Origin: Nitrospira sp.
Lineage (GTDB): Bacteria > Nitrospirota > Nitrospiria > Nitrospirales > Nitrospiraceae
Direction: 5' to 3'
Assembly: GCA_965223535.1 (NCBI GenBank)
Contig: CBDCWN010000002.1
Coordinates: 59,721-123,720, forward strand
DNA: 64,000 nucleotides
The notes beneath the pieces are model-generated. The model had not been told where the DNA came from, ran no database searches, and saw nothing but the letters and a program-made list of their open reading frames with translations. Made by a program: the position numbers and the translations under genes. Position 1 is the first letter of the stretch. Each line of letters begins with the position of its first letter. Below are positions 13,263 to 59,713 of this stretch, piece after piece.

Positions 13263-13742
13263 CTACTCGACGGATACCACGATCCGACGCGATCGGTCCT
13301 TGGCTTCGGGCGTCCAGGGTATTCGAACAGCCAGCACTCCATGCTTGCAGGCAGCCTCGGTCTTCGAGACATCGACGCCGTCCGGCAAGGCCACACTTCG
13401 ATGAAACGCGGTGTAGCGACGGCCACGGCCTTCCCCGTTGCCATCACGCCATTCACGCTCGTCCTCATAACTGACATGGAGCATACCAGGCCGGACGGTG
13501 ACATTGAGGTGTTTCGGGTCCAGTCCGGGGATGTCGGCACGGAGAAGCACGTGCTCGTCCGTCTCGTCCATCTCGATCCCAGAGCCGCCCCCGGCAAACC
13601 GAGACCATCCCGTCTCCAAGGGCGACATGAGAAACCGATCAAACAGCTGATTGATGTCATCGCGTAACGACAGAACCTCCTGCGTGTCGACCGGTTTCCG
13701 TTTCCACGGAATCATGTCTTTGAGTTTGCTCATGAGCTCCAT
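13263..13742 (-). CDS. Small heat shock protein (Hsp20/alpha-crystallin)
   Basis: Motifs LRADIPG, FHRSVALP and ACKHGVLAVRIP. SD AAGGAGG precedes the ATG at 13742. Confidence 0.88.
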   Translation of the reverse strand: MELMSKLKDMIPWKRKPVDTQEVLSLRDDINQLFDRFLMSPLETGWSRFAGGGSGIEMDETDEHVLLRADIPGLDPKHLNVTVRPGMLHVSYEDEREWRDGNGEGRGRRYTAFHRSVALPDGVDVSKTEAACKHGVLAVRIPWTPEAKDRSRRIVVSVE

Positions 13743-13978
13743 GGCGTCTCCTCCTTTCTTCCAGTTGGTACAGTGGACATTCCCTTCACCGATTTCGATA
13801 AGGCTCCTCACGCGCCGGTCAAGTCCTCGTATGCGACGTTCCACTGGTTCCTCTAGGGTAGACCTCAGGTCACCAGATCTGTCGTGGAAATCGAGGGTGA
13901 TTTCTTGTCACCCTTGGGAATACAGCATGAGCGATTGAGTTTTGGCCGTCCCCACATGAACCTCTCGACACCGGATAT

Positions 13979-14110
13979 TCACCATTTTGTCGATTTCCGG
14001 TCCGTCCGCCACGTCATCCACGCGCTCACCATGAACGCCAGGATGATCAGGCCGAAGACGACCAAGCCCATCACTTCAGTGCGCGGTAACGCGGCAAGTA
14101 ATTCTCTCAT
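13979..14110 (-). CDS. Putative 43-aa single-TM microprotein (MRELLAALPRTEVMGLVVFGLIILAFMVSAWMTWRTDRKSTKW)
   Basis: Translated by hand. GGAG SD, hydrophobic stretch and basic tail. Confidence 0.4.
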   Translation of the reverse strand: MRELLAALPRTEVMGLVVFGLIILAFMVSAWMTWRTDRKSTKW

Positions 14111-14128
14111 CGCGAGGTCTCCCGCTCT

Positions 14129-14398
14129 TCACCGACCTTTTCTGCCACCCGTGCGCATGATGTCGTTGAGGAGGCGATCCCGATGACGCATGATCATCGC
14201 CCGCCGCCTGGGCCGATCGAGCGACCACCAGCGCAGAGGGCGACTAAAGCGAACAGTCGGCGGCGGGATATTTCGTAAGACGGCTGGGTGCTGAAAGTCA
14301 TAGCCTGCAGCCTGTTGTCTGCCAACCGCAGTTGCGGGCTGAACGATGGCGGCATCGAACGTCCCTGCTAGAACTGTACTTGCACTTCTCGGTTCCAT
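14129..14398 (-). CDS. Hypothetical protein (89 aa)
   Basis: ORF with GGAG SD before the ATG at 14398, co-oriented with neighbours. No recognised motif. Confidence 0.35.
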   Translation of the reverse strand: MEPRSASTVLAGTFDAAIVQPATAVGRQQAAGYDFQHPAVLRNIPPPTVRFSRPLRWWSLDRPRRRAMIMRHRDRLLNDIMRTGGRKGR

Positions 14399-14678
14399 GG
14401 CGAATCTCCATCCTCTTGGCACTTCCTCTCTCCAATTGTGGAAGCACAACGCTATCCCGCTACTCAGTCGTGACACTTCACCACCCACAAGAGACCATTC
14501 ACGCGTCTCTCGTTCTTGCGATGGGTGATGGTTCGTGACTGATTAGGGAAGTCATCATGCAGTGTCATCATCCGTCCACGCCTGACGACTCCGCGTGACT
14601 GACAACGCAGGTAATTCCGTTCGAACACAAGTCAAGACCGACAGGACGCTGATTCAGGAGATGGACTGGGCCAATCTC

Positions 14679-14706
14679 TTGACCAAGACAAAACGAGAAT
14701 TATGAT
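14679..14706 (+). promoter_or_regulatory. Sigma70-like promoter upstream of hsp20
   Basis: TTGACC, 16-bp spacer, TATGAT, about 95 bp upstream of the ATG at 14802. Confidence 0.4.
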
Positions 14707-14801
14707 ACTCGTGAACGCAAGAGCACCGCGTATGAAGGCATACCTTACATCCATACGGGGTGGCCCTGCGCATGTGGTCACACCACGAAAGGAGGTTCAT
14801 C

Positions 14802-15251
14802 ATGAATCTGGTACGCTGGGATCCATTTCGGGAGTTGGAAGATATGAGCCATCGGCTCAACCGACTATTAGCCGGAAAAGACGTGAAGAGCCACGACGGA
14901 ACGGACACCATAATAACGGCCGATTGGGTCCCTCCCGTCGACATCAGCGAGACCGATCAGGAATTTCAGGTCAAGGCGGAGCTTCCAGGGATCAAGAAGC
15001 AGGACATCAAGGTCACGTTGGAGGGCGGCATCCTCACGTTGCAAGGTGAGCGACCGGAGGAGCAAGAGGACAAGGGTCGTCGAATTCATCGCGTGGAACG
15101 GTCCTATGGACGGTTCGTCAGAAGTTTTACGCTTCCCGATGTGGTCGACGCAACTAAGGTCAATGCGGAATTCAAAGATGGGGTGCTGACGTTGCGCCTG
15201 CACAAATCACCAGCGGCTGTCCCCAAGGCCATTGAGGTGAAGGTCGCGTAA
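14802..15251 (+). CDS. Small heat shock protein (Hsp20)
   Basis: MNLVRWDPFRELE...DWVPPVDISET...RVERSYGRFVRSFTLP...FKDGVLTLRL. SD AAGGAGG. Confidence 0.95.
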   Translation: MNLVRWDPFRELEDMSHRLNRLLAGKDVKSHDGTDTIITADWVPPVDISETDQEFQVKAELPGIKKQDIKVTLEGGILTLQGERPEEQEDKGRRIHRVERSYGRFVRSFTLPDVVDATKVNAEFKDGVLTLRLHKSPAAVPKAIEVKVA

Positions 15252-15279
15252 CTACCCTCTGCCAACCCTGTCATCGAGG

Positions 15280-15312
15280 AGCAGCCCGTTGTTCGAGAAT
15301 GGACGGGCTGTT
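15280..15312. terminator. GC-rich hairpin between convergent genes
   Basis: AGCAGCCCGT / ACGGGCTGTT stem. No clear U-tract. Confidence 0.3.
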
Positions 15313-15442
15313 CCCCCCTCTCATCGACTCTGGCGACTCAGTCTGCTCGCCACTGTTCTTGTCGGAGTCGAGGTGGTCGTTCTGATGACGGTTGGATTCT
15401 AAGTGGAGCAGCAGCCAAGCTGGTTGCTCATGGCGAGAGTCA

Positions 15443-15610
15443 TCAAGAGGCGTCTCGCCGGGGCTGTCGTGCATCGGGTCCGGCGAACGGATTGCTCGAC
15501 CGTGAGTGCGTGTCGTGATTGCCGAATAGATATATAACCAGGTACGCCATGGCAGTCGCCATGGCTACGACAATCCCTCCCATCGTGAGCGTGGCGATCA
15601 GTTCAGCCAT
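15443..15610 (-). CDS. 55-aa single-TM microprotein
   Basis: MAELIATLTMGGIVVAMATAMAYLVIYLFG... with SD AAGGAG. Confidence 0.55.
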   Translation of the reverse strand: MAELIATLTMGGIVVAMATAMAYLVIYLFGNHDTHSRSSNPFAGPDARQPRRDAS

Positions 15611-16269
15611 ATCTCGTTGCTCCTTGATGGTTGATACAGATCCGCGGAGATGATCTCGACTCCTTAGTTTAGGGTCAACCCCCTGCGTGCGCGTGCGGCG
15701 CATTTGGAGAATCGCCTCCGACAAGCGATCGCGAAGAGGCATGCTCACGGGCGATCTCATTACAGTATCCGTGACAGTTCGCTTTACCATGCGGTGCCGT
15801 AAGGGGAGGTAATAACAGGAAAAAGAAAATCAAGTTGGATAGGAGACGAGGAGGTATCCGGGACGGTGAACAGCACGATCCTCCTCAATCGTCGGCTGAG
15901 AGGCTTATAGAATTGGAGAGAGACTCATGTCCATCGTGTGGTGCACCAGTCGATGCACCCAGCGTAAGGACTGGCACGGATTGTCAAGAATGTCTCAAGC
16001 ACTCAGTGCCTTGTACCTTTTCTCATCTCCCCCTCTTGACTCATCTTATTTTGGAATTACTCGTATTATCAGAATTGACAGACTGGACTGGATGGACGTT
16101 GGTGAAGGGCCCACTGTCTAGCCACCTGTCATAGCGGTGTGCACCTCGGCCCTTCACGCAGTCCTCCCGCTCCAGCGTAACGATTTCTAACAAACTGCTG
16201 ACCCGTGTGGAAGGGTCTCGCCATGACTTTGGCGAGCCCACGCTCGGTCATGGAAGGGAGGTGAACACG

Positions 16270-16446
16270 ATGATGGACATGAGCTCCATGATTGATGCGG
16301 GCCTGGCGCTCGGTGGGGCGATGGCGGTAGTGCTGATGGGAATGGCGATGGTGTCTTCGGACTCCACCACCGTGTCCATGTCCTCCGACGAAATTAGACG
16401 TCAATCCGACGACACCCAGTATCCGCCTCTTCAGGCTGCGGCCTAG
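16270..16446 (+). CDS. 58-aa single-TM microprotein (paralog of 56437-56613)
   Basis: SD context GGAGGTGAACACG-ATGATGGA. Same length and pattern as the ORF at 56437-56613. Confidence 0.7.
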   Translation: MMDMSSMIDAGLALGGAMAVVLMGMAMVSSDSTTVSMSSDEIRRQSDDTQYPPLQAAA

Positions 16447-16488
16447 TTGAGGGCGGTGCGGTTGCCGTACTGAATCCGGGAGGAAACG

Positions 16489-16578
16489 ATGATGACGTAT
16501 CACTGGCAAATGTGGAACGCACAAGTCCTGGGAAGGGCTGATTATTTCTCGTGGCCACATCAGCGGTGGTCGCGATAA
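16489..16578 (+). CDS. Putative 29-aa Trp-rich microprotein (MMTYHWQMWNAQVLGRADYFSWPHQRWSR)
   Basis: Translated by hand. GGAGG SD 5 nt upstream; lies in a tandem gene string. Confidence 0.4.
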   Translation: MMTYHWQMWNAQVLGRADYFSWPHQRWSR

Positions 16579-16646
16579 AGGAACAGGGACATCTTCACGG
16601 GATGTCCCTGGTGCGAGTTGAAGACAGAGGAAAGGAGGGACCGACG

Positions 16647-17321
16647 ATGCCAATCACATTCAGAATGGTAACCATACTCGTGATGCTCTGCCTGGTCCTG
16701 GGATTGGTGGCCACGCCGGGCATCGCCACAGAAGGTGTGTCAACGGACGCCACACTCCCGCGTGCCTTTCAGAACGCTCAGTTCGGGATGACGCTGTCTG
16801 AATTCACAGCGGTCGTCCCTGAGGCGAAGCCAGTGTCCCTCGGAGGGCGTGATCACGCTGACCGGACGGTGGTGGTGCCATCACAAGAACGGCCCCTCCA
16901 CCGCATTGAATATCGTTTCTCCGATCGGCTCCGGGAATTCATCCTTTATTATGTGTATGCCGATGTCCCTGGTGGGTATGCTGGACTGCTCACACAATTA
17001 CGAGAGTCGTATGGGAAGCCCATAAAACAGAATCTGTACGAATATTATACGAAACCCGAAGCCTACTCAGAAAAGAAGACGATCTGGAAGGATCGTGCCA
17101 CGATGGCCACTTTGACGGAGATTCGTAAACTGAATGGTGACCAACGCGAACTGAGCGTGACGATCACCGATCTCACGGGTCAACCGGCTTCGGGGGAAGG
17201 GCAAGCGCGTCACGCACAAGAACGGAGTATCCCGATTCCAGTGCCGGAGGACCGGACTTCGAACGAACAGACGGCGGTGCCGGACCGAGCTGGGGCACAG
17301 ATCAAGCAGGCACGTGGGTGA
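16647..17321 (+). CDS. Exported hypothetical protein (224 aa)
   Basis: SD AAGGAGG and a signal peptide (MPITFRMVTILVMLCLVLGLVATPGIA). Confidence 0.7.
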   Translation: MPITFRMVTILVMLCLVLGLVATPGIATEGVSTDATLPRAFQNAQFGMTLSEFTAVVPEAKPVSLGGRDHADRTVVVPSQERPLHRIEYRFSDRLREFILYYVYADVPGGYAGLLTQLRESYGKPIKQNLYEYYTKPEAYSEKKTIWKDRATMATLTEIRKLNGDQRELSVTITDLTGQPASGEGQARHAQERSIPIPVPEDRTSNEQTAVPDRAGAQIKQARG

Positions 17322-17405
17322 GGGAGTGTGGGGAGAGAAGGACCCTGATTTGGTGAACTCATTGAAGACTACTCGTGGGGTGAGTGCGAAAGGAGGTGGT
17401 CGGCC

Positions 17406-17489
17406 ATGAAAGTGCTCTCTTGGATTCGGGCGCTGGTGGCGACCTGGCTCATCGTGGCGCCGATCATGGTCGCGATCCGAATCCTGTGA
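17406..17489 (+). CDS. Putative 27-aa hydrophobic microprotein (MKVLSWIRALVATWLIVAPIMVAIRIL)
   Basis: Translated by hand. GGAGGT SD. Confidence 0.45.
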   Translation: MKVLSWIRALVATWLIVAPIMVAIRIL

Positions 17490-17578
17490 TCGAGTTATCA
17501 CAGAGCAGATCGTTGAATCCTATCGAAGAATGCGTGAACACGAGCCGATGACGCATAGGAAGGGAGGGGGAAGAAGCA

Positions 17579-17749
17579 ATGAAACATCTACCATGGTTCG
17601 TAGCAGCGGTCGGGGGCTGGCTCATCGCCGTGCCGTTTCTGCTCAACGAGGCCGGGACTGACATGGCAACACAGAATGGTGTCGGGGTGGGTCTGGTGAT
17701 GGTGGTAAGCGCACTCGTGTGGGGATTCTCGAAATGGGTCTGGCAGTGA
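17579..17749 (+). CDS. 56-aa two-TM protein, SPW-repeat-like
   Basis: MKHLPWFVAAVGGWLIAVPFLL...NGVGVGLVMVVSALVWG. SD GGAGG. Confidence 0.55.
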   Translation: MKHLPWFVAAVGGWLIAVPFLLNEAGTDMATQNGVGVGLVMVVSALVWGFSKWVWQ

Positions 17750-18091
17750 TGTATGTACCCAACATACGAGCTAGAAGGGGCGTGGCATGATGGTAGCCAA
17801 GCCCCTCACTAATTGGTGTCGTCACAGGGAATCACAATCCCGACTACGCAGTAGGCAGTGGATGATGCTCGCACGGCGTGTTCGTCCTATCAACACCTGC
17901 CGTGTGGTCGGCCTCCCCATCTCACACAGGACTAGGGGTTTTGCCAGTCCTGATCTGCGGGAGGATCGCGATACTCGATCGATGGTCGTGCTCATTCCAA
18001 ATGAGACGAAGCGGCCGGCATCCTCGGACGGATGCCGGTTCGATCTCTCGATGTGCTCAATGTGTATGTACTGCGTGAAAGGAGGACTCAC

Positions 18092-19045
18092 ATGACGCGT
18101 CTGACTCTCTTAACATGGGCTCTTGCCGTGTCTTTCTTGAGCGTGGGAGTGGTCTTGCCCACGGGTGTCTGTGCCGCCGATGCCCAACAACCTGCAAAAA
18201 AAGCCGAGCCTCAAACCAAGGCCCAGGCATCTCAGAAAGGCGAGACTCAATCCAAAGCCTCCCAATCGGTGCAGCCAGAGGTTGACAAACAAACGGCGGA
18301 TGCCGCCACCGAAAAACGAAAGAAACTACTAGCTGAGGCGACGGCCGCCCTCGATGAATCCAAGAAGGCGCTCAAGGCGTTGGACGAGAACAAACCGGAC
18401 CGCGCGTTGGCGGCCCTGGCCGCGGTGACGGGGAAACTCGAAGTCATCGTGGCGCGGGAACCTGCCCTGGCGTTGGCCCCTGTGGATGTCCAGGTTGTGA
18501 CGGAGGACGTACTGGCCAGTCCGGAAACCATCAAGACGACCATCGAGAAAGCCAAGGAGTATCTCGACGATGGAGACATTCAAAAGGCCCGTCCGTTGGT
18601 GGCGTCGCTGTCCAGCGAAATTCAATATCGGATCATCAATATTCCGCTGGCCACCTATCCGGATGCGATCAAAGCCATTACGCCCTTAATTGACGACGGG
18701 AAGATCAAGGAGGCGAAGACCGCGTTGCAGGCAGCCCTCAATACTCTGGTGGTGACAACCGAAGTGGTCCAGCTACCTAAGCTGCGAACAGAACAGTTAC
18801 TGAAACATGCACAGGAACTTGCGGAAAAGCAGGATCGGAGCAGCACCGAAAATACGGAATTGGCTGATATTCTTCACGCCGCGCGCAAGCAACTGGAACG
18901 AGGCGAGGTGCTGGGGTATGGCAATAAGGAGGCCTATCAACCTCTCTATGAGCAGCTCGATGAGTTGGAGAAAAAATCCTCCGGCGGCAAAAGTGGCAAG
19001 GGGTGGTTCGACAAGATCAAGAAACAGCTTTCGGAGCTGTTCTAA
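18092..19045 (+). CDS. yfdX: YfdX-family periplasmic protein
   Basis: Signal peptide and helical pattern ALKALDENKPDRALAALAAVTGKLE...IPLATYPDAIK...ALQAALNTLV. SD AAGGAGG. Confidence 0.75.
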   Translation: MTRLTLLTWALAVSFLSVGVVLPTGVCAADAQQPAKKAEPQTKAQASQKGETQSKASQSVQPEVDKQTADAATEKRKKLLAEATAALDESKKALKALDENKPDRALAALAAVTGKLEVIVAREPALALAPVDVQVVTEDVLASPETIKTTIEKAKEYLDDGDIQKARPLVASLSSEIQYRIINIPLATYPDAIKAITPLIDDGKIKEAKTALQAALNTLVVTTEVVQLPKLRTEQLLKHAQELAEKQDRSSTENTELADILHAARKQLERGEVLGYGNKEAYQPLYEQLDELEKKSSGGKSGKGWFDKIKKQLSELF

Positions 19046-19441
19046 TTCTACCGTGGTTCGGGTTCTATCCCGCTTCGGCGGAACACCTCAGTACGGTTCA
19101 GCATGAGCCAGGAGGGTGTCAAGACGTCGAGACGGATATTTATACTGCGGAGTCGAAGCCTGAAGCGGGCATAATCTTGGACACGCGGGGATGATGGGAA
19201 GCCACCTCGCCGCTGAACGGCGCGTTAGGGTCAATCTCTTCGGCCAAGAGCGACAAGAGGTGTGCCAGTCCTCTAACCAGTGACTAGGTCGTTGTTTGCA
19301 ACGGGCAAGCTCAGGATGACGAGCTGAACCAGTTGCGTCGGAACTTTATCCCAGCGTGTAGCGCGAACATGAGAATCGGTGCATGTTCAATCGGGCGATC
19401 TCGGGCACGGTCTCGCGAGGCACCACGGAGGAACAGGAACG

Positions 19442-21268
19442 ATGAATAGGCAGGTCTCCTTTTCAATTTGGTATGTGCTGCTCGCCGTCATGGCGGTGGT
19501 GATCGTGCATGACTTCATTCTGGCACTGAACCAGGTCGAAGAGCTTCCGTACAGTGAATTCAAACGGCTGGTTGCGGAGGAGAAGGTCGCTGAGGTTGCG
19601 GTGACCAGCCATATGCTGGTCGGAACATTGAAATCTGAGGGGGACTCAAAAGAACAGAAAGCGTTTCGGACCGTGCGGGTTGAGGATCCGGACCTCGTCC
19701 GTGAACTCAATGAACATGGAGTCACCTTCACCGGCGTCATTGAATCCACGTTCTTGCGCGATCTCCTTTCATGGATCATTCCGGTCGCACTCTTCGTCGG
19801 CATCTGGTTTTTCATCTTTCGGCGATTGGGACAGGCTCAAGGCGGCTTTATGCAGGTCGGCCAGTCGAAGGCCAAAATCTACATGGAGAAGGACGTCAAC
19901 GTCACATTCGCGGATGTCGCCGGAGTGGATGAGGCCAAAGAAGAGCTGCGAGAGGTGATCGAATTCCTCAAGACGCCGGAGAAATTCACCAAGCTCGGCG
20001 GCAAGATCCCGAAAGGGATCTTACTCGTTGGACCACCTGGAACAGGGAAGACACTGCTCGCACGCGCGGTGGCAGGAGAGGCGTCGGTGCCGTTCTTCAG
20101 CATCAGTGGATCGGAATTTGTGGAGATGTTCGTGGGAGTCGGGGCGGCGCGGGTTCGTGACCTCTTCGAACAGGCGAAGGGCAAAGCTCCCTGTATCATT
20201 TTCATCGATGAATTGGATGCGCTTGGGAAAGCCCGGGGTATGGGGCCCATGGCGCATGAGGAACGGGAGCAAACACTCAATCAACTGCTGGTTGAGATGG
20301 ATGGATTCGATCCTCGCGTCGGGGTCATCCTCATGGCCGCGACCAACCGTCCGGAAATTCTTGATCCGGCCTTGCTCCGCGCCGGGCGATTCGATCGTCA
20401 TGTGACCGTGGATCGCCCCGACAAGAAGGGACGTCTGGATGTGCTTCGAGTTCACGCGAAGAAGGTGGCGTTGCGCCCTGACGCAGATCTGGAACAGATC
20501 GCGGCGATGACCCCAGGATTCTCAGGGGCGGACCTAGCCAACGTGATCAACGAATCGGCCCTGCTTGCAGTTCGTCGCGGGAAGGACCAGGTAAGCGTCG
20601 ACGAGTTGCAGGAGGCGGTGGAGCGAGTCATCGCGGGCTTGGAAAAAAAGAATCGCGTCCTGAACAAGATGGAGAAAGAACGGGTGGCCTATCATGAAAC
20701 CGGTCATGCCCTCATCGCCCTGTCCATTCCGGGGACCGACCACGTGCAGAAGATCTCCATTATTCCTCGTGGCGTAGCAGCGCTCGGCTATACGTTGCAG
20801 CTTCCGACGGAAGACCGGTTTCTGATGACGCAATCCGAGTTGGAGAATAAAGTGGCCGTATTACTGGGCGGGCGAATTGCCGAAGAAACCATCTTCGGCG
20901 AGGCCTCCACCGGAGCACAGAACGATCTCGTGAAAGCCACTGATATCGCAAAAAGCATGGTCAAGGCCTACGGGATGAGCGACAAGCTCGGCACCATCAC
21001 CTTAGAGCAAGAGCGACAGCCACAATTTCTCCAGCTTCCTGTCGCTTCCGAAAGAGGGGACTACTCGGAAGAAACTGCTCGTGAGATTGATTGCGAAGTG
21101 CGGCGAATTATCGAGGAGCAGTATGGACGGGTGAGGCGACTACTGGAGGAGAGGAAAGCGGCTCTGCAAAAAGGGGCACAGCTCTTGTTGGAACGGGAGG
21201 TGATTACCGGGGCTGAGCTGAAGGCGATAATGGATGTTAATTTAGTAGAACAATCTGCGCGGAGATAA
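19442..21268 (+). CDS. ftsH: ATP-dependent zinc metalloprotease FtsH
   Basis: Two N-terminal TMs, Walker A GPPGTGKT, Walker [30 protein letters not shown] and HETGH Zn motif. Confidence 0.97.
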
Positions 21269-21355
21269 CCGAAGGAGGTTCACCGGTATCTTCGCTATCG
21301 TACGCGTGTCAACACTCGCTGATATCATCGACTGAACAGCCGGAACCGAAGGGCT

Positions 21356-22288
21356 ATGGAATACAAAGACTACTACAAGATCCTCGGCGTGGAGCGCACC
21401 GCGACGGCCGATGACATCAAAAAAGCCTACCGCAAGCTGGCGCGCACCTATCATCCGGATGTCAGCAAGGAGGCCGGGGCGGAAGCGCGCTTTAAAGAAA
21501 TCGGTGAGGCCTACGAAGTCCTTCAAGATCCACAGAAGCGAGCGGCCTATGACCAACTCGGGACCCGCTGGCAGGCGGGACAGGACTTTACACCTCCGCC
21601 GGACTGGGGGACAGGTTTCGAGTTCACCCAGGGCAGAGCATCGAGGGAGGCCGCCCCCGACTTCAGCGACTTCTTTTCCAGTCTCTTCGGCAATTTTGCT
21701 CGTCAGGCCGATGCGAGCCGGGCGCGCGGCGAGGACCATCATGCGAAGATCCTCATCCCGCTCGAAGACGCATTTCATGGGGCGACCCGCACCATTACCC
21801 TGCGTGCACCCCAACTGGATGCGCAGGGTCGCGTGGTGCTGCGCGAACACACGCTCAACATACGGATTCCCAAAGGCATTCGTGACGGCCAGCTCATCCG
21901 ACTAGCCGGCCAAGGCACGCCGGGAACAGGTGGGGCGCCCGGAGGTGATCTCTACCTAGAAATTCATTTCGATCCCCATGCGTTGTACCGGGTGGAGGGG
22001 CATGATCTCTCGCTGACCCTGCCACTTGCTCCATGGGAAGCGGCGCTCGGCGCGACGGTCAAAGCGCCGACCCCGACCGGTGTGGTCGAAGTCAAGGTGC
22101 CAGCCGGTTCGCAGAGCGGGCGGAAGCTTCGGCTCAAGGGCCGGGGAATTCCCGGCGAGCCGCCGGGTGATCTCTATCTCGTCCTGGACGTGGTCCTTCC
22201 GAAAGCGGACACCGCGCGGGCCCAGGAGCTTTATCGGACGATGGCGCAGGAACTGTCCTTCAATCCCCGACGGGCTCTTGGCGTGTGA
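21356..22288 (+). CDS. cbpA: Class II J-domain protein CbpA
   Basis: KDYYKILGV...YHPD, DnaJ C-terminal domains, no CxxCxGxG zinc finger. Followed by cbpM. Confidence 0.92.
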   Translation: MEYKDYYKILGVERTATADDIKKAYRKLARTYHPDVSKEAGAEARFKEIGEAYEVLQDPQKRAAYDQLGTRWQAGQDFTPPPDWGTGFEFTQGRASREAAPDFSDFFSSLFGNFARQADASRARGEDHHAKILIPLEDAFHGATRTITLRAPQLDAQGRVVLREHTLNIRIPKGIRDGQLIRLAGQGTPGTGGAPGGDLYLEIHFDPHALYRVEGHDLSLTLPLAPWEAALGATVKAPTPTGVVEVKVPAGSQSGRKLRLKGRGIPGEPPGDLYLVLDVVLPKADTARAQELYRTMAQELSFNPRRALGV

Positions 22289-22300
22289 GGAGGTTCTGTC

Positions 22301-50992: not shown

Positions 50993-50995
50993 GAC

Positions 50996-53840
50996 TCACG
51001 CCTCCCTGAGCACATGCTGATACCGTCGTTGGTCTGTTATCGCGACGCGGCGACGCCAGATCCAGATCGCCAGCAGGCCGATCAACGCCAAACCATAATT
51101 CGCCGACTCCCAGAGTTGCTGGCGCCCATGTGGTAACGGATCAAGGGTACGAGCCAGCTGTGTGCGGCCCCGTAACGCTAACAGGCTGCGATCCTCCAAC
51201 GACCAATCGACCGCATTTTGGATAAACGCCAACGGTTTCGTGTAACGGGTGCTGAGTCCCTGAGAGACCAGTTCCGTCGCCATGTCGGACGCGAAGGTAT
51301 TGCTGGATACTAGGATCAGGCGTGCCGAATCGGGCGAATGGGTGATGATTCCCGTTCCTTGCACAGGAGGTTCGTTCTCCGTGCTGGCCGTGCCGTTCGT
51401 TGACGTGAGCGGTGATTCCTTCTCTTGGTAAAAAGAATCGAACTTCCCTTCAATGGCAACAGCCATTAGAGATCCGGCCTGTTCGTCGCCAACGGGGAAT
51501 CCGGTGTCGGGATAGGCTTGGTAGTCGGGAAGGATGTTCTGGCTTTCCGACGTCCAGCTCATGGCAGAGCTCCGCACGAGCTCTGTCACCGTTCGTTCTG
51601 TATTCTTCAGTGCATCAACCGTCACCGGTGAAGCCCAGTTGAGCGTCAATTGAACTAAGGAAGCCGTAATCGGAGAGTCTTGACTGAGCTCTTCGTTCCG
51701 CAGATCAGGAAAGTGTGGATAGGGGAGCATGCGGATCTCGCGCACGGTGATCCCCCCCAGGTGCCGTTCCACTGGAACCGGCAAGGCCGCGTTGTGCAGG
51801 TCGAGCACCATGGTCTCCTCAATCGTAATTCCATGGTGCGCCAACCATTCTTCAAGCCCAGAGGTCTTCTTGGTCGCCGTCAGGCTACCGGCAACCTGGA
51901 CATTGAAGGGGGAGGTCGTGACAACCACGCTGCCGCCCTGCATGAGGAACTGATCGATGGCGAAGCGTTGTTTGTCATCCAGTTGACCGGGTGCGAGTAC
52001 CAGAAGCAAATCGGCTTCAGCCGGTACTCGGCCATTCTTTAGGTCGGCTTCCTTGAGCCGGACATTTTCGGCAAGGGTTTTTTCCAATTCAGTGTATCGT
52101 AGACTCCCGGGTCCGGTTGGCTGAGGCTTCACAACCACCACGGTCTTGAGCACACCGGGCGCCAATCGCTGGAGGGCCGCCTCCACCGTGCGTGTGAGTT
52201 CCTCCTTACCCAGGGTCGTCGGGAGGGGCACTTGCACGACCTCGCCATCGGCTTCCAGAACCATGTAAAACCAGAATGGCTTGGGATCGAGGGGGCTGAC
52301 AATTTGGGGGCGAAATCCATACTTCTGCTGCAACTCCTCGGCGAGCTGACCACCCTCCGCGTCGGGATCCGCAAATCGTATGGTGAGCCGATCGCCCGCT
52401 TCCTTCCCAAGCTCGTTCAGCAAGACTTCCAAGTCGGTACGGAGTTCACGGAGAGCCTTCGGCAGTCGCTTCTCAGACGACATGTACCCGTGAAACGTCA
52501 CGGAGCGAGTCAAGTTATCAAACACATTCCCACCAGCCTGATAGGCACCTGCTACCTTGCGGATCGCGCGGGTAATCGCGTACTCAGGGTCTTTCAAGAC
52601 CACGTCTACATCGGCTTCGCTGTACGCTTTCACTTCGATGAGATCTTGAAAACCCAACCGTTCATATTGGTCCCCATAGGCGATCACCAGGTCAAAGTAG
52701 GAACTGACCACCGCCGCCTGGTAGCGATCCGCGGTCTGGAAGGGAACGGGGCGAACGCCATATCGGGACGCGGCCTCCTCTTCCGCGTCGCGGTCACGGG
52801 TGGGGTCGATGATCTCCACGCGAGCGTGGCCTCCGGAAGCGACGACATATTCCTGGAGCAGATCCTTGAGGCGCGGGACAAGTGGTGCCAACAATGGATG
52901 GGTTTTAGCCGAGAAATAGCCGCGAATGAGGAGTGGTTCTCGCAGTTGCGTGAGTTGCTGTTGCGTCGAGTGAGAAAGGGAATAGAGGTTCCCGTGGGTC
53001 ATGTCGATCCGCGCGTGCGTGATCGACCCAAGCCAGAGATTTCCCGCGATGAAGTTCGCCGCCGTCAGTCCGGCTACCCAAGCCCATTGGCGATGTCTCC
53101 GGCTGACCGGGTTCCCTGCCCATCGGATTTGTTCAAGCGAGAAGACGTTGAGCGTCAGGAAGACCCCGACGATCGAACCATAATAGTAGAGGTCCCGGAG
53201 GTCAAGGACACCTCGGCTGATCGATTCGAAGCGCGTGCCGGTGCTGAGCAGCGCAAGCCAGCTGCCGACCTCGTGCCCAAACAACGTGGTGATGGTCTCT
53301 GCGCCGATCAGGTAGAACAATCCGCAGACGACGGAGGTGAGAATCAACGCGACGATCGAGTTATCGGTGCGGACGCTCATGTACAGCCCGATCGCTACAT
53401 AGGCGGCCGCGAGGAACAGTGTGGCCACATACCCGCCGATCACCGGTCCCCAATCCAGAGGGCCGAGCAGTGCCACCGTCACCGGGAGGGGTAGCGTCAA
53501 GAGCAGCGCGATGGAGACCAATAGTAAGGAGGCACAGAACTTTCCTAAGACCAGTTCAAGTGGACGCACTGGGGCGGTCAGGAGGCTTTCGAGGGTGCCA
53601 CCAACCCGTTCCTCAGCCCAACTGCGCATGGTCAAGGCCGCCACGAGGAAAATCAGCAACAGCGGGAGCCATTCAAACAAGGGACGCACGTCTGCGATGT
53701 TGCGGGCGAAGAACGTCTCCAACCAAAAGAACATGAAGAGGACCAGCGTCAGGAAGGCGCCGACGAACAGATAGGCTGCCGGCGTCGAAAAGAAGCCGCG
53801 GAATTCCTTCTTCGTTACGCGGTGGATGATAGGGAGGAAT

Positions 53841-53848
<8 letters not shown>
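50996..53848 (-). CDS. GldF-GldG-like fused ABC permease / accessory protein (950 aa)
   Basis: KEFRGFFSTPAAY, RSWAEERVGGTLESLL, RGVLDLRDLYY, DMTHGNLYSLS and IDQFLMQGG. Confidence 0.82.
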
Positions 53849-54755
<907 letters not shown>

Positions 54756-54785
54756 GCAACCTCTCCAATCTAGTGATGCTTTCTG

Positions 54786-56270
54786 TCACTGTTCCCCGCT
54801 GATTGACAAGAAAATGGTGCTGTTCCCCCTTTTCACCAACAGCAAGACACGTGACCGTGGAGCAAGCTGGCTTGTCAGACGCTCGAAATCTTTCACGTCT
54901 TTGACCGGCTTCCGGTTGATTTCATGGATGACGTCCCCTTTCTGCAGTCCTGCTCGTTCGGCCGAGCTCTCAGGTTCAATATCCGTCACCACGACGCCGG
55001 AGGACGCCTTTGAGCGACCAGACTGACGAGCATTTTCCACGGTCAGGCCCGCGAGCGCATGGTCCCCCTTTCCGCTGCCGTCGCGGCTCGCCTTGGCCAA
55101 TTCCTTGGGTAGCTCCCCGATGGTGATGGTGAGATCCAAGGGCTTCTTGTCGCGCAAGACAGACAGGTGTACTGTCGTCCCAGGCGGAGTCTCGGCCACC
55201 AACCCACGGAGGTGATTCGAGTCTCGCACGGGGACTCCGTTATACGCCGTCATGATGTCGCCCCGCTCGAGCTTGGCTTTCGACGCTGGACTATCTTCCA
55301 GGACATCACCCACGAGCGCCCCTGTGTTCTCGGTTGCGCCGAATTCCTTTGCGAGGTCTGGCGTGACATCCTGAATCGATACGCCGAGCCATCCACGGAT
55401 GACCTTGCCGTGCGTGATCAGGCTCTGCATCACGCTCTTGGCCATGTTGCTCGGAATGGCGAAGCCAATACCCATGTAGCCGCCGCTCCTAGAGAAGATC
55501 GCGGTATTAATCCCGATCAATTCCCCCTTGAGGTTCACCAAGGCGCCGCCGGAATTGCCGGGATTGATGGCGGCGTCAGTTTGGATAAAGTCTTCATAGT
55601 CCACGATCCCGACATTGGCGCGGCCGATCGCACTGATAATCCCCATCGTCACGGTCTGGTTCAACCCGAAGGGATTGCCCACCGCCAGGACCATTTCTCC
55701 CACCTGCAGCTGACTCGCATCCCCCCACGGAAGGACGGGGAGATTGGAGGCCTCGATCTTGACCACCGCCACATCGGTTTTGGGGTCTGTCCCGATCACC
55801 GTGGCTTTGAACGTTCGTTTATCCGGTAAGGAGACGTTTAGTTCATCGGCCCCTTCGACGACGTGATTGTTGGTGATGATGTAGCCATCCGATGTCACAA
55901 TCACACCCGACCCCAAGCCCTGCTGCTGAAACTCGCGTGGAGACGGCATTCGACGCTTGAATTCCTCACCAAAGAACCGGCGGAAGAAGGGGTCATCGAA
56001 GAAAGGATTTTGGAAACTCTGGCCCTCCTGCTTGGTTTTCCTGACGGACGAGACGTTGACGACAGACGCTTTGGCGAGTTTGGCGATTGGCACCAAGAGC
56101 TGTCCGGGCAGTGCCTCTTCCGCTGTGGGGGCGTTCGTGAGCTGAGACGGGGCCGTTGACGATGGAGACGCCGCCGCAGTCGAAAACAACGAGAACACAT
56201 TCGGACTGGAGACGAACAGTGTTCCTCCACACAACAAGGCAATTGCACCACGCCAGTGTAGTATCTTCAT
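54786..56270 (-). CDS. degP: HtrA/DegP (Do-type) serine protease with two PDZ domains
   Basis: Catalytic triad TNNHVV, PKTDVAV and GNSGG. Close paralog of 46378-47886. Confidence 0.95.
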   Translation of the reverse strand: MKILHWRGAIALLCGGTLFVSSPNVFSLFSTAAASPSSTAPSQLTNAPTAEEALPGQLLVPIAKLAKASVVNVSSVRKTKQEGQSFQNPFFDDPFFRRFFGEEFKRRMPSPREFQQQGLGSGVIVTSDGYIITNNHVVEGADELNVSLPDKRTFKATVIGTDPKTDVAVVKIEASNLPVLPWGDASQLQVGEMVLAVGNPFGLNQTVTMGIISAIGRANVGIVDYEDFIQTDAAINPGNSGGALVNLKGELIGINTAIFSRSGGYMGIGFAIPSNMAKSVMQSLITHGKVIRGWLGVSIQDVTPDLAKEFGATENTGALVGDVLEDSPASKAKLERGDIMTAYNGVPVRDSNHLRGLVAETPPGTTVHLSVLRDKKPLDLTITIGELPKELAKASRDGSGKGDHALAGLTVENARQSGRSKASSGVVVTDIEPESSAERAGLQKGDVIHEINRKPVKDVKDFERLTSQLAPRSRVLLLVKRGNSTIFLSISGEQ

Positions 56271-56436
56271 GATTGTTTCCCTATCCTTAGCCTATGTCGA
56301 CGCACACTACTAAATCCTTCCGGCACTCGGCGTTGATAGTTCATGGTCGTTCACGGACGACATGTAAAGAGCACCATCGCGAGCGGCCTGCTTATCACAA
56401 GCCGCTCGCGGTAACGAACCGACAGTCTGTGCACGA

Positions 56437-56613
56437 TTAGGCCGCTTCTGGGAGCGACCCGAGATCGGCCTGATGGGATTGTGTAGGGACCGCTGATCCG
56501 GAGATGGACACGGTGCTAGATTCGGTGGACAACGTCCACAGCCCCATCAGCAGCACCACCATCGCACCCCCTATCACGAGTCCGGCATACATGACCGCAC
56601 TCCAATCCATCAT
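56437..56613 (-). CDS. 58-aa single-TM microprotein (paralog of 16270-16446)
   Basis: MMDWSAVMYAGLVIGGAMVVLLMG...LPEAA with the same GGAGGTGAACACG-ATGATGGA context. Confidence 0.7.
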   Translation of the reverse strand: MMDWSAVMYAGLVIGGAMVVLLMGLWTLSTESSTVSISGSAVPTQSHQADLGSLPEAA

Positions 56614-57030
56614 CGTGTTCACCTCCTTTCATCTTGCGACGGACAACACATATGCGTGTAGTTTCAGAACAGGTTGTGCGCCAGGGAGCTCGTGCACGGT
56701 TTGATCGAACGGTCGTCATCCTCTCACGCACGGCCTCCTCGCTGTCTCCGCAAAAACCAGGTACGCCTCCCCGAAACTCCCTGTACGTGACGCCCTTTCT
56801 GTGGTTGGTCTTGTTCTCGGTCCTCGGCACGCCATCGTCTGAACAGCTTGCCTTATCTCCTGTTCTCCTCGTTCACCTTCGTCACATGCCTGCGCTCTAT
56901 CCACTATTTTGAGGACCTGATCCTTCGACTCCTGTCGCGTAACCCCGGGGATGCGAGGGAGCCGCACCGCATGAGAACACTCGTGCGGCTTCCCTCGCTT
57001 GGACCACACTGGAGGAAGTTGAGCGACTAT

Positions 57031-57468
57031 TTAAGCTTCTTCGATCAAGATGCGTCGACACTTGGCCTCTTCCCGTTTCGGGAAGGTAATCGTTAAAAGG
57101 CCATGCTTGTGAGTCGCAGACGCCTTGTCTTGTTCGACAAAAGACGGTAACCGGAAGCGCCGTGTGAATTGTCCACCCGCAATCTCGTGGAGGTGGAATT
57201 TCACAGGATTGGTAGGCTCAGCACTCTGCTCACCCTTGACGGTGAGGATACGGTTATCGACCTCCAGACTGATGTTCTTGGGCTCCCATCCGGGCAGTGC
57301 CATCTGCACATAGAACCCATTGTCATCTTCCCAGGCATTCGCGGCTGGAGCCCAGGCCTGATCAGCGACATCAAAGGTTCGTACCGCGTCATGAAGCAGC
57401 CGATCAATCTGACGATCGAACGCATCGGTTTGGATGGCTGACACGACATTTGGCAAGTAGGTGCTCAT
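57031..57468 (-). CDS. Small heat shock protein (Hsp20)
   Basis: WAPAANAWED...QFTRRFRLP...HKHGLLTITFPK. SD GGAGG. Confidence 0.93.
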   Translation of the reverse strand: MSTYLPNVVSAIQTDAFDRQIDRLLHDAVRTFDVADQAWAPAANAWEDDNGFYVQMALPGWEPKNISLEVDNRILTVKGEQSAEPTNPVKFHLHEIAGGQFTRRFRLPSFVEQDKASATHKHGLLTITFPKREEAKCRRILIEEA

Positions 57469-58361
57469 AACACTCCCTCCTCCTCTCTGCGAGAGGTCTG
57501 GTTATGGGTTAAGAGTTAACTTAGTGGATGGTGAGTAGGCTAAACCGGGGGTTGGGGCAATCGATGCCGCCAGTACTCCGCCAGTGTTGGGCCTTACACC
57601 AATCCATCTGGTCAAGTATCAGCAACAGTTTGAAGATAAATACTCGCAATGAGAAGTCAAGAGGGGTCGTTCGATAACCCAGGATTCAATAAATATAGCT
57701 CTGGCTGTGGATCCGTGGAGAATGGTCCGTAGCTAACGGGGCGGGTATCCCGCCAGGCCCGGCCTACGAGTGTTTGTGTGTCGCCTGGTTGTCCAGGCTC
57801 GGATGTCTTTGCAGGGTGGTGGGCAGGCGGCGATCGACCTGCCACAGGAACGTCCAACGCTTCTCAGGACGATGGCAGGTTGGTGCCACGTAAGATCTCT
57901 CCCCTAATCACTTGAAGAGCTGACTCACCCACATAGAAGGCTAACGCCTTCTTGGGCGGATTCATGTATAACTCGACCACCTTCCGACCTTCTTCACAAA
58001 GAAAGGATAGGAAGACAGCTTGAAGGTCCGCCCACAATGCACCTGGACCTTCAAAATGGACAGATCCAGCTGCACCGTGCTGTGCCGGACTTTAAAGGAT
58101 ACCCGTCTCATGTGTGACCTCCCAACGCACGAGAGTATGCGGCAGATCGTGGCCGGGTACGCAGTGGTGTGGTTCGCACGCCGGGCATCGGCGCGCATTG
58201 GCCGTATGGGAGTCGTCTACCGCCCAAATAGCACCGAGGCACCTCCTTGATGAGAAGCCTGCACCAGCAAAGTACAAACGTTTAGGTACTTTATTGCGGT
58301 TACTCTTGGGGCACCATACAAGGAAACCTCGGATGTTCGTCGAAGCGGGTCCATAAACAGG

Positions 58362-59513
58362 TTAAGTGCCCGGTTGCAGTTCCACTCGTACTTCGCGGGT
58401 TGTGCCTTTTCGTTCAACGGTCAAACGGACGATGTCGCCAACACGATGATCGTCGATCCGTGCCAAGAGGCCAGGAACGCCGTCGATCGACGTGCCGTCG
58501 ATGGCCGTGATCAGGTCCCCAGGGGTAATACGTTGCGAGGCAATGGTGATGCCGACCAATCCTGCCCTTTGAGCGGTGGACCCGGGTTGCACCCGCAGCA
58601 CGAAGACGCCTTGGTGCCCGGTCACCATCTGCAGTCGCTGATTCAGTTGCTCGTCCACCTCAATGCCTAAGGCAGGGCGGATGTACCGGCCAGATTTGAC
58701 GAGCTGGGGGACGACACGCATGACCGTGTCGACTGGTACCGCGAAACCAATGCCTGCCGAGGCTCCGGAAGGACTGTAGATGGCCGTGTTAATCCCGATC
58801 AGTCGTCCCGCCGAATCTAGCAGGGGGCCGCCGGAGTTGCCAGGATTGATGGCAGCATCGGTCTGAATCAGATGCTCGATCGTCGGACCAGCGGCGTCAC
58901 TGGCCAGGGAACGGTCGAGCGCCGAGATAATTCCTGTGGTCAGCGTCCAGTCCAGTCCAAACGGGTTGCCGATGACGAAAACCTTCTGGCCAGCCTTGAG
59001 GTCAGCGCTGGTGCCGATGGGGACTGCCGGCGGCCGCTTGAAGCCGACACCGATCTTGAGCACGGCGATATCGTGCGCTGGGCTTGTGCCAACGAGGGCG
59101 GCTTGATAGTCACGGCCATCGGTGAGCTTCACTATCGCCTGCGAGGCGTCCTGGATGACATGGAAATTGGTGACGACATGTCCCGCCTCATCCCATATGA
59201 ACCCGGAACCGGTCCCACGCGGCACCGAAAACACATTGCGTGTCCACACATCCCGCACAAGCTTGACCGTCGAAATATATACGACCGAATCGCGGGATTT
59301 CTCGAAGAGTTCGATGGTCGCGCGCTCGTCGGCGGCCAAGTCGCCGCGCGGCGTGACCGTTCTCTCGACGGCCTGCCGAGGGCTGAACCAGGCTTCGATG
59401 GCGGGCAGGAACCGCCAAAACAGCATGAGTGCCGCGACGGAGGCGGTGATAATGAGCCAGCGAGTCACAAACCGGTCAGACGCTACGTGACCGTAGGGAT
59501 CGTGGGCAGTCAT
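58362..59513 (-). CDS. degP: Membrane-anchored HtrA protease with one PDZ (tLST DegP-like)
   Basis: N-terminal TM, GTGSGFIWD, TNFHVI, HDIAVL and GNSGG. ATG at 59513. Confidence 0.92.
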   Translation of the reverse strand: MTAHDPYGHVASDRFVTRWLIITASVAALMLFWRFLPAIEAWFSPRQAVERTVTPRGDLAADERATIELFEKSRDSVVYISTVKLVRDVWTRNVFSVPRGTGSGFIWDEAGHVVTNFHVIQDASQAIVKLTDGRDYQAALVGTSPAHDIAVLKIGVGFKRPPAVPIGTSADLKAGQKVFVIGNPFGLDWTLTTGIISALDRSLASDAAGPTIEHLIQTDAAINPGNSGGPLLDSAGRLIGINTAIYSPSGASAGIGFAVPVDTVMRVVPQLVKSGRYIRPALGIEVDEQLNQRLQMVTGHQGVFVLRVQPGSTAQRAGLVGITIASQRITPGDLITAIDGTSIDGVPGLLARIDDHRVGDIVRLTVERKGTTREVRVELQPGT

Positions 59514-59638
59514 GGCAAGTCTCCGCGGTGAAAATTCAGTCCCAGAAACGGTTGTATTCGGGTGGAGAGCGGATCTCCGTGACGAGTTTCGAGGCAACAT
59601 AGCACCATTGGATGCGCAGTACCACGGCGTGCGGGGGA

Positions 59639-59713
59639 CGCGAGTTCAAGCAGTTGGGCGATGCGATCCAGCGTGACTCGATGGATGCGTAACCCAGACG
59701 GTTCTGGATTTCG
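59639..59713 (-). pseudogene. Relic of an HtpX-like (M48) Zn protease C-terminus
   Basis: Reads *RNPEPSGLRIHRVTLDRIAQLLELA, resembling (from memory) WGNPEPSWLRTHP..ERI.RLL. Directly upstream of the tLST-like degP. Confidence 0.45.

Follow-up and report, generated by a model that had tools for sequence, protein, structure and literature searches.

Gene content of the island

We analysed a 64-kb stretch of a 170,010-bp contig from a Nitrospira sp. assembly (GCA_965223535.1, contig CBDCWN010000002.1), referred to here as the window; all absences reported below hold for these 64 kb. A preceding sequence-only reading had described in it a protein-quality-control island, related to the transmissible stress-tolerance locus (tLST) of Proteobacteria and comprising three small heat shock proteins (sHSPs) of the Hsp20 family, FtsH, YfdX, CbpA/CbpM, a Trx pseudogene, three HtrA proteases and an htpX relic. 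Every one of these genes was found, and the two Do-type proteases, the Gld-type ATP-binding cassette (ABC) system and the microproteins also described there were recovered by Pfam, TIGR02037 and open reading frame (ORF) comparison. The island genes are as follows (coordinates, strand, description; aa, amino acids; L numbers denote related contigs and loci).

13263-13742, -, Hsp20_159: Pfam HSP20, 159 aa, Nitrospira type
14802-15251, +, Hsp20_149: Pfam HSP20 (E 6.6e-26), 149 aa
16270-16446, +, microprotein 1: 58 aa, single transmembrane segment; called as a 58-aa gene in L003-L008
16647-17321, +, o224: secreted, Nitrospira-restricted family, signal-peptide-like N-terminus
18092-19045, +, YfdX-family periplasmic protein: one copy, PF10938 (E 2.6e-37)
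19442-21268, +, FtsH: TIGR01241; Walker A, Walker B and HEXXH (HETGH) intact
21356-22288, +, CbpA-type J-protein: Pfam DnaJ and DnaJ_C; HPD present, zinc finger (CxxCxGxG) absent
22301-22618, +, CbpM-like MerR_2 protein (Pfam): in relatives always directly after CbpA
22623-23043, +, Trx-GI/TrxC-like pseudogene: at least two frameshifts, with tLST Trx-GI aligned in three frames
45586-45972, +, o128: secreted, 128 aa, Nitrospira family, signal peptide
46084-46311, +, 75-aa zinc-ribbon ORF (CxxC-N24-CxxC): between o128 and DegP1
46375-47886, +, Do-type DegP1: Pfam, two PDZ; TIGR02037 509 bits (cut-off 416); catalytic motifs present
48110-49732, +, CopD/cytochrome c/AhpC-TSA fusion: Pfam; CVPCH haem site
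49976-54755, -, Gld-like ABC system (Pfam): ATPase 53841-54755, GldF/GldG-like fusion 50996-53848, DUF4340 protein 49976-50992
54786-56270, -, Do-type DegP2: Pfam, two PDZ; TIGR02037 519 bits (cut-off 416); catalytic motifs intact
56437-56613, -, microprotein 2: 58 aa, single transmembrane segment; called as a gene in L026
57031-57468, -, Hsp20_145: Pfam HSP20, 145 aa
58362-59513, -, tLST-type HtrA (DegP_GI): Trypsin_2, one PDZ, both catalytic motifs
59514-59712, -, decayed 3' htpX (M48) remnant, tLST-type: matching part 59633-59710

FtsH scored 791.5 bits against the TIGR01241 cut-off of 600, YfdX 128.5 bits against the Pfam PF10938 cut-off of 26.6, and DegP_GI 288 bits on TIGR02037, under the cut-off of 416. 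By sequence, the CbpA/CbpM pair combines an HPD J-domain, DnaJ_C, the lack of a zinc finger and a MerR_2 gene next door, and it is kept as a pair in 80 metagenome loci. The two microproteins are paralogues (47% identical), one in each island half, placed behind promoters or sHSPs. None of o128, the microproteins and the zinc-ribbon ORF has a Pfam match, and NCBIfam offered generic families only, with no tLST-specific models.

A Tn3-family element divided a contiguous locus

The island genes lie in two blocks, and two copies of a Tn3-family insertion sequence (IS)-like element bracket 13089-42080:

9840-13088, -, copy A: tnpA of 988 aa at 9926-12892; 38-bp inverted repeats starting GGGGTAACGGG
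42081-45329, +, copy B: Pfam DDE_Tnp_Tn3 (E 5e-120) and DUF4158

The copies are inverted to each other and identical at 3249 of 3249 positions (3249 bp each), and the terminal inverted repeats of the element are 97% complementary. The DDE_Tnp_Tn3 domain, repeats of ~38 bp and a 5-bp target duplication place it in the Tn3 family; tnpA fills the 3249-bp element, in which an ORF listing revealed no second gene, and no resolvase or res site was found there. IS1071-like elements are resolvase-less members of the Tn3 family that transpose replicatively and can invert the DNA between donor and target. The window element appears similar to them in its length (~3.2 kb), tnpA-only content, 38-bp repeats, 5-bp duplication and inverting replicative transposition, whereas IS1071 itself has long terminal repeats.

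The sequence CATGA at 13089-13093, on the inner side of the left copy, is the reverse complement of TCATG at 45330-45334, on the outer side of the right copy, and the two remaining element flanks do not match each other. Window positions 13089 and 45329 lie side by side in seven related contigs of other assemblies (L003-L009), overlapping by the 5-bp target, and this uninterrupted site is also crossed by a metatranscriptome contig. Because the 5-bp flanks are reverse complements and the relatives carry empty sites, we conclude that the element divided a once-contiguous locus and that 13089-42080 (29 kb) was inverted. The route was either a one-step intramolecular replicative transposition or an insertion followed by recombination between the twin copies, both of which predict the observed flanks. 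Reverting the inversion joins 13089-23407 to 45330-59712 (10.3 + 14.4 kb) in an island of ~24.7 kb, bearing out the contiguous island of about 24 kb proposed earlier.

An assembly or binning artefact, in which Nitrospira chromosomal stress genes were misjoined to a plasmid backbone, had to be considered here, as DegP1 and DegP2 form an 83% nucleotide repeat, paralogues of this kind and a repeated Tn3-family element typically cause misjoins, and sibling contigs break inside DegP1. However, the inverted-repeat/Hsp20 junction as it stands in the window is crossed by contigs of the independent runs X41 and X1, so the inversion is not an assembly artefact. In addition, a contig obtained in another run, L026, matches 51075-59999 at 100% identity, integrase side included, the target-site duplication logic is exact, and L003 continues from the same genes into conjugation genes. 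With these observations, a misjoin is very improbable.

Island genes with Nitrospira chromosomal counterparts

The island FtsH was 95% identical to a Nitrospira chromosomal FtsH, 60% to that of an alphaproteobacterial plasmid, 56% to that of the tLST and 47% to that of Escherichia coli. Its best 120 relatives are 86-100% identical, 600 aa long and mostly Nitrospira-labelled, many of them on Mb-size contigs (86-95% for the FtsHs of many Nitrospira chromosomes), and the chromosomal context DUF1207-ftsH-mlaE-mlaF-mlaD is common to Nitrospira sp. OZ245008 and Candidatus (Ca.) Nitrospira nitrosa. As far as sequence comparison can tell, the island FtsH is a duplicate of a conserved Nitrospira chromosomal paralogue, which we regard as the decisive result on gene origin.

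The FtsHs of ~600 aa encoded by Nitrospira chromosomes (L033, L035), the tLST (L031) and alphaproteobacterial plasmids (L014, L015) share 55-64% identity with one another and 44-47% with the E. coli protein, and may form one 'accessory FtsH' subfamily. A DUF1207 gene is also present on the plasmid at 35529-36473, and the DUF1207 gene directly upstream of the chromosomal Nitrospira FtsH is 58% identical to it. A link to KefB through the 570-aa Na/H-exchanger adjoining the chromosomal FtsH in OZ245008 was discarded, this protein being just 27% identical to KefB-GI.

Close chromosomal counterparts in Nitrospira were also found for Hsp20_159 (99%), DegP1 (98%), the GldF/GldG-like fusion (GldFG, 94%), o128 and the CopD fusion (93% each), YfdX and the ABC ATPase (92% each) and DegP2 (91%). 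The matches of Hsp20_159, DegP1, o128 and the CopD fusion are genes of OZ245008 and that of DegP2 a gene of Nitrospira sp. YTPLAS72, and the N. tepida homologs of DegP1 and o128 are 75% and 65% identical, respectively. Hsp20_149 is 70% identical to an N. tepida chromosomal sHSP versus 46-49% to the tLST sHSP20-GI, and Hsp20_145 is 79% identical to a gene of Ca. N. kreftii that is itself first in the same operon there. The genes of the Gld-like ABC system are 76-94% identical to Nitrospira chromosomal genes in the same order. A homologue of the zinc-ribbon ORF, with its N-terminal half conserved, lies downstream of o128 in Ca. N. kreftii; in addition, ~330 nt around this ORF are 99% identical to the OZ245008 chromosome (L009), the neighbouring genes being ~94% identical. 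The o224 family has 38 representatives among 1.84 billion sequences, and all named members are from Nitrospira. The AlphaFold2 model of o224 (predicted local distance difference test score 79) gave weak fold matches (E at least 0.006, template-modelling score at most 0.35), and a PDB sequence search had no significant match; several of the weak fold matches were Mog1/PsbP/DcrB-like, and no fold was assigned.

Gene order is conserved as well. The arrangement Hsp20-DegP-ATPase-GldFG-DUF4340 is present on the chromosome of Ca. N. kreftii (CP047423, L027) and in Nitrospira sp. YTPLAS72 (L030), where it adjoins integrases. CopD fusion-DegP-o128-Hsp20_159 ... o224-YfdX is present on the OZ245008 chromosome at 74-99% protein identity, and in cultured N. 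tepida (OX365700, L120) DegP and o128 diverge from Hsp20 and an o224 homologue (34-75% identity). These chromosomal stress clusters have the genes, the order and the promoter motif described below in common with the island, at identities of 65-99%. They differ from the window, where the modules are joined on a plasmid with a second FtsH, CbpA-CbpM-Trx', YfdX and htpX'-degP_GI and then split by a transposon.

Relation to the tLST

In the review by Kamal et al. (PMC8290217), the tLST is defined by the core dna-hsp20-clpG, with >80% DNA conservation and a mainly beta/gamma-proteobacterial range, and its origin is stated to be unknown. The tLSTs of Klebsiella pneumoniae pVA684-388 (L001) and E. 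coli p38M23CPO005_A (L031, ftsH intact) were used as references and compared with the window in both directions. Searches with tblastn from both references gave no match in the 64 kb for ClpK/ClpG, the helix-turn-helix (HTH) protein 'dna', HdeD, orf11, KefB or PsiE; ClpK found just weak AAA-domain matches inside FtsH (E 0.02), and the HTH protein nothing. The core dna-sHsp20-clpG/clpK is thus absent from the window, including the ClpG that had been reported as lacking together with KefB. DNA conservation was below the tLST level, with blastn against L001 aligning only ftsH (68.5% over 813 nt) and degP (75% over 989 nt). From the accessory set, one YfdX, a Trx pseudogene, an HtpX relic, DegP and one sHSP are present, short of the full tLST set and order.

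YfdX is 47-53% identical to tLST YfdX1 and YfdX2. In its phylogeny, it branches outside both clades. A search matched 311 plasmids, the best at 53-54% and annotated 'heat resistance protein YfdX2'. Above 70% identity YfdX had just three relatives (97%, 92% and 86%), the 92% one on the Nitrospira chromosome OZ245008; below 70%, matches from proteobacterial metagenome-assembled genomes (MAGs) appeared at 57-69%. Among the other Nitrospira loci examined (L027, L030, L033, L035, L120), none has YfdX. The synonymous/nonsynonymous counts of 61/26 and 48/10 indicate that YfdX is under purifying selection. A PDB sequence search with YfdX returned no significant match.

The closest relatives of CbpA are metagenome contigs, 76-80% identical and arranged CbpA-CbpM-Trx, and remoter loci read CbpA-CbpM-Trx-DegP_GI, CbpA-CbpM-HtpX-Trx-sHSP or YfdX-sHSP-DegP-CbpA-CbpM; FtsH stands beside CbpA in none of these metagenome relative loci. 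Residues 5-59, 50-129 and 130-146 of Trx-GI match three different frames of the island pseudogene at 45-54% identity. Trx is also split in L003 and L004 and is intact in three of the CbpA-CbpM-Trx loci (L040, L041, L043). Across the metagenome contigs L040-L119, CbpA-CbpM very often precedes a Trx-GI-like thioredoxin (60-69% identical to the Trx-GI of the tLST), and an HtrA or HtpX of tLST type sometimes comes after the pair as well. The CbpA-CbpM/Trx linkage was not found in the tLST reference loci or in the available portions of two tLST papers. YfdX and CbpA-CbpM-Trx' are part of a broader pool of genes in the environment that are related to the tLST.

DegP_GI shares 78-80% identity with tLST DegP and 85% with its best named matches, which come from Ca. 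Accumulibacter and Cupriavidus. Among the matches listed, no DegP_GI relative is Nitrospira-labelled, and the best in Nitrospira loci reaches just 38%. The adjoining htpX relic is 65-74% identical over 23-26 residues to HtpX residues 264-289, and 76% nucleotide homology to an Accumulibacter M48-DegP cassette stops at 59712, one base from the island end proposed earlier (59713). In Accumulibacter, M48-HtrA forms a small cassette among transposases. By similarity, htpX'-degP would be a truncated cassette of betaproteobacterial type; it is the only part of the island close to the tLST gene pool (78-85% to proteobacterial genes).

Like the tLST, the island is a mobile protein-quality-control set flanked by transposable elements, of a kind borne on plasmids or chromosomes, with the families sHSP, FtsH, YfdX, Trx, HtpX and HtrA, the order sHSP > YfdX > Trx and the htpX-degP adjacency in common. 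It differs in having one YfdX instead of two; in FtsH, sHSPs and two DegPs that appear host-native (Nitrospira) and not xenologues; in the addition of CbpA/CbpM, the Gld-like ABC system, the CopD fusion, o128, o224 and microproteins; and in promoter type. Plasmids Brucella anthropi pOANT01 (L014) and Rhizobium pRetKim5d (L015) also carry multiple Hsp20 genes with a ~600-aa accessory FtsH (60%), and in pRetKim5d DegQ adjoins the FtsH/Hsp20 array. Unlike the window, pOANT01 keeps ClpK/ClpG, a sigma factor, HdeD, YfdX1/2, TrxC and KefB, making it a true tLST relative.

Descent of the whole 24.7 kb from a tLST-like ancestor, as a non-proteobacterial tLST that has diverged, with ClpG and KefB lost and other genes acquired, would account for the hallmark YfdX, the Trx-GI-like gene and htpX'-degP, the collinearity of sHSP ... 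YfdX ... Trx with the tLST and the retained htpX-degP adjacency. The mutual similarity of the Nitrospira-type, tLST and alphaproteobacterial plasmid FtsHs, and the CbpA-CbpM-Trx-DegP_GI and YfdX-sHSP-DegP-CbpA-CbpM clusters of metagenomes, also speak for it. It is at odds with the missing core, HdeD, KefB and PsiE, the Nitrospira chromosomal orthologues of FtsH, the sHSPs and the Do-type DegPs in native contexts, a promoter type that Nitrospira chromosomes also have and the scanned tLST loci lack, and the position of YfdX outside both tLST clades. Moreover, the sole close match, DegP_GI, sits at the opposite island end from Trx and belongs to a separately mobile cassette in Accumulibacter. We therefore consider descent of the whole island from a tLST unlikely. 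Of the proposed relation, the tLST-family character of YfdX, the Trx-GI-like pseudogene and htpX'-degP stands, and that of a diverged whole tLST does not: FtsH, each of the three sHSPs and the two Do-type DegPs cluster with copies from Nitrospira chromosomes, the first of the two observations that the sequence-only reading had named as refuting it. The expectation that the gene set co-occurs elsewhere held, and the synteny search recovered island arrangements in other assemblies and in Nitrospira loci, in support of a mobile, recurrent protein-quality-control cluster with a strong envelope-protease component.

A promoter-like motif and expression

The sequence CTTGAC-N16-TTA(T/C) has six exact matches in the window versus 0.07 expected, all within the island:

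13798-13823, -, CTTGAC-N16-TTAT: upstream of Hsp20_159; conserved in L003, L004 and L009
14611-14636, -: no convincing gene downstream; internal stops interrupt the ORF that is called at this place in relatives
14678-14703, +: upstream of Hsp20_149; best sigma-70-type match of the region, TTGACC-16-TATGAT
16035-16060, +: upstream of microprotein 1
45450-45475, +: upstream of o128; likewise at the o128 homologues of Ca. N. kreftii and N. tepida
57636-57661, -: upstream of Hsp20_145; L027 and L030 have orthologous copies whose spacers have diverged

At orthologous sites, and with spacers that have diverged, the motif recurs in sibling contigs and on the chromosomes of Ca. N. kreftii, YTPLAS72, OZ245008 and N. 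tepida; a scan of five proteobacterial loci of tLST or tLST-like type found no copy. This suggests that regulation of the island is tied to the Nitrospira lineage, and the motif could be the signature of a stress regulon in Nitrospira. Upstream of the island genes, no match was found to the sigma-32 consensus of E. coli type (CTTGAAA-N11-16-CCCCATNT, with as many as 3 mismatches allowed). The alphaproteobacterial RpoH consensus is CTTG-N17-18-CYTAT-NT, and the motif resembles it, a likeness that serves as a lead and not as a test. The sHSP leaders at 14712-14815 (+) and 57456-57600 (-) fold somewhat better than shuffled sequences (z ~ -2.3), and part of the ribosome-binding site or start codon is base-paired in them, a hint that these two leaders could act as RNA thermometers; a scan of the window with Rfam at the gathering threshold had no match, known RNA thermometers included.

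In X18, the metatranscriptome of a bioreactor, there are contigs over the sHSPs, microprotein 1, o224, YfdX, o128 and DegP1. Contig depth, which is a poor measure of expression, was highest for the sHSPs and microprotein 1 (Hsp20_149 ~830, microprotein 1 ~827, Hsp20_159 232, Hsp20_145 high; o128 172).

These data also bear on the view that the island is no functional unit, its genes being cargo accreted by transposons and recombinases and partly decaying, without joint selective value. The two pseudogenes (Trx and htpX'), the three Tn3-family copies, IS630, solo inverted repeat and integrase in and around the island, and its variable content (the OZ245008 locus has YfdX and is without FtsH, CbpA and CbpM) would be expected under such accretion. 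The six-fold promoter-like motif conserved across species, the intact catalytic motifs and purifying selection on YfdX, the same arrangements in many independent samples together with transcript contigs, and the single functional theme common to all components argue against it, and we regard accretion without function as quite improbable.

Replicon and host

The backbone beside the island carries a partition gene and a recombinase:

59909-61003, -, tyrosine recombinase: Pfam Phage_integrase; adjoins the htpX truncation point
62863-63735, +, ParA: Pfam; plasmid backbone partition gene

A composition scan revealed a drop in G+C from ~0.58 to ~0.47 at the ParA side, sharp after ~61 kb. L010 and L011, which overlap the window end at 92-99.5% identity, carry ParB and then an RPA-type replication protein, and in sibling contig L003 conjugation genes are reached from the same island genes. 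ParA in the window, with ParB and the RPA-type protein on the overlapping contigs, suggests that the ~170-kb contig is a plasmid-like replicon, as had been proposed, though no circularity was seen. Literature searches for Nitrospira plasmids or megaplasmids yielded nothing relevant.

The Nitrospira-like host named in the sequence-only reading also found support. Many window genes have 90-99% matches to Nitrospira chromosomes, and the sequences that cluster at 90% identity or above with the permease fusion, with the ATPase and with the Tn3-family transposase carry Nitrospira labels, including Ca. N. kreftii. Similarity and MAG labels thus support a replicon that lives in Nitrospira or has very recently traded DNA with it.

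A probable mosaic accessory proteostasis island

Taken together, we think it probable that the locus is a mosaic accessory proteostasis island, in which Nitrospira-native stress modules on a plasmid were combined with genes from the tLST pool, making it a relative of the tLST and not a member. Four native modules would have contributed: (i) o128, the zinc-ribbon ORF, DegP1 and the CopD fusion, beside Hsp20_159, which faces away; (ii) Hsp20_149, and a microprotein with o224; (iii) Hsp20_145, a microprotein, DegP2, the GldA-like ATPase, the GldF/G-like permease and DUF4340; and (iv) a duplicate of the chromosomal FtsH that is normally located between DUF1207 and mlaEFD. Three grafts would have come from the tLST-related pool, namely YfdX, the CbpA-CbpM-Trx block with its Trx pseudogene, and the truncated htpX'-degP. 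A resolvase-less Tn3-family element would later have split the island and left 29 kb inverted.

In the proposed mechanism, a host factor, presumably a sigma factor, would read CTTGAC-N16-TTAT under proteotoxic stress and turn on the sHSPs, the microproteins and o128 together with downstream genes. Unfolding cytoplasmic proteins would be held by the sHSPs and passed by CbpA, modulated by CbpM, to the host Hsp70, and damaged membrane proteins would be cleared by FtsH. Damaged periplasmic proteins could be handled by the three HtrA proteases, YfdX, o128 and o224, and the envelope could be protected or repaired by the CopD fusion and the ABC system. Carriage on a plasmid would provide extra gene dosage and make the set transferable.

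Several points weigh against this reading. Trx and htpX are dead genes; gaps of 770 and 396 nt separate o224, YfdX and FtsH, so that a single coordinated unit is a matter of prediction, as is the operon structure in general; and the X18 contigs were matched at 90% identity or more, so that chromosomal paralogues or contaminating DNA may contribute to them. The nearest CbpA-CbpM relatives are unlabelled metagenome contigs, and a chromosomal origin of the pair is putative. The host assignment is drawn from similarity and MAG labels, the two closest sibling contigs being labelled 'Proteobacteria bacterium HN_bin10' and 'uncultured Nitrosospira sp.', and the backbone G+C of 0.47 differs from that of Nitrospira. 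ClpG, KefB and other genes could sit on the remaining part of the 170-kb contig, and the link to a tolerance phenotype is a prediction from gene content.

Nitrospira oxidises nitrite and also performs complete ammonia oxidation (comammox) in wastewater plants, in biofilters and in drinking-water systems treated with chloramine. A transferable chaperone/protease block on a host stress promoter could help to explain persistence under heat, disinfectant or metal stress, and a full-text literature search for Nitrospira together with YfdX found no paper. The mixing of tLST-pool genes with a native, non-proteobacterial stress regulon, and the CbpA-CbpM-Trx-DegP_GI clusters that are common in metagenomes, provide material for tracing the origin of the tLST. 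A bolder proposal, which we consider improbable, is that the island is a transmissible, host-wired stress-tolerance module, responding to the Nitrospira stress promoter CTTGAC-N16-TTAT and raising the tolerance of Nitrospira to heat, oxidising disinfectants or copper in engineered water, and that its sHSP-YfdX and CbpA-CbpM-Trx-DegP_GI clusters are part of the source reservoir of the tLST. If true, the proteobacterial tLST would have drawn its envelope and redox modules from these environmental clusters. This significance is tempered by a content of mostly ordinary stress genes, two dead tLST-type genes and a tolerance that is only predicted.

Flanking elements and neighboring genes

The island is bounded by mobile elements (Tn3-family elements, IS630 and the integrase) and the ParA backbone. 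The right edge of the YfdX-FtsH segment is formed by a second Tn3-family element:

23408-26674, +, second Tn3-family element, unrelated to copies A and B: tnpA of 1034 aa (Pfam); inverted repeats

Its repeats are unusual (CGCCTATTAGCC...) and it has no matching 5-bp flanks; an IS630-family element follows at 26927-27830. Homology to the window ends at 23408 in L003 and at 23292 in L004, and since L004 has a different Tn3-family element at nearly the same place, the site may be an insertion hot spot. A solo terminal repeat at 40370-40407, 74% like the right end of the Tn3-family element, and IS4/5-type transposase debris at 41223-41597 point to earlier transpositions within the inverted segment. 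An ORF at 9400-9846 encodes region 2 alone of an extracytoplasmic function-type sigma factor; it extends into the left terminal repeat, where the element cuts it short. The rest of this gene was found at neither Tn3 junction, nor after the solo inverted repeat.

Several ORFs were set aside. A 109-aa antisense ORF chosen by gene callers is probably spurious, the 75-aa zinc-ribbon ORF being preferred, and o99, o100, o119, o109 (minus strand), o55, o102 and o84 probably do not represent genes, as they are Arg-rich, antisense to stronger candidates or interrupted by stops in relatives. The ORFs at 38600-41200 and 61476-62732 have no Pfam match.

The region 28133-35432 contains an efflux-like operon, whose products are a fusion of an outer-membrane factor with a periplasmic binding-protein-like domain, an adaptor of HlyD type, a fusion of a double ATPase with ABC-2 and an ABC-2 permease. 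At 79-9329 lie a MerR-type regulator, a CusCBA-like system for resistance-nodulation-division efflux and a glycosyltransferase that resembles trehalose synthase and carries a fused YHS metal-binding domain, suggesting that metal resistance is a second theme of the plasmid. In sibling contig L004, a multicopper oxidase and CopB adjoin the island.

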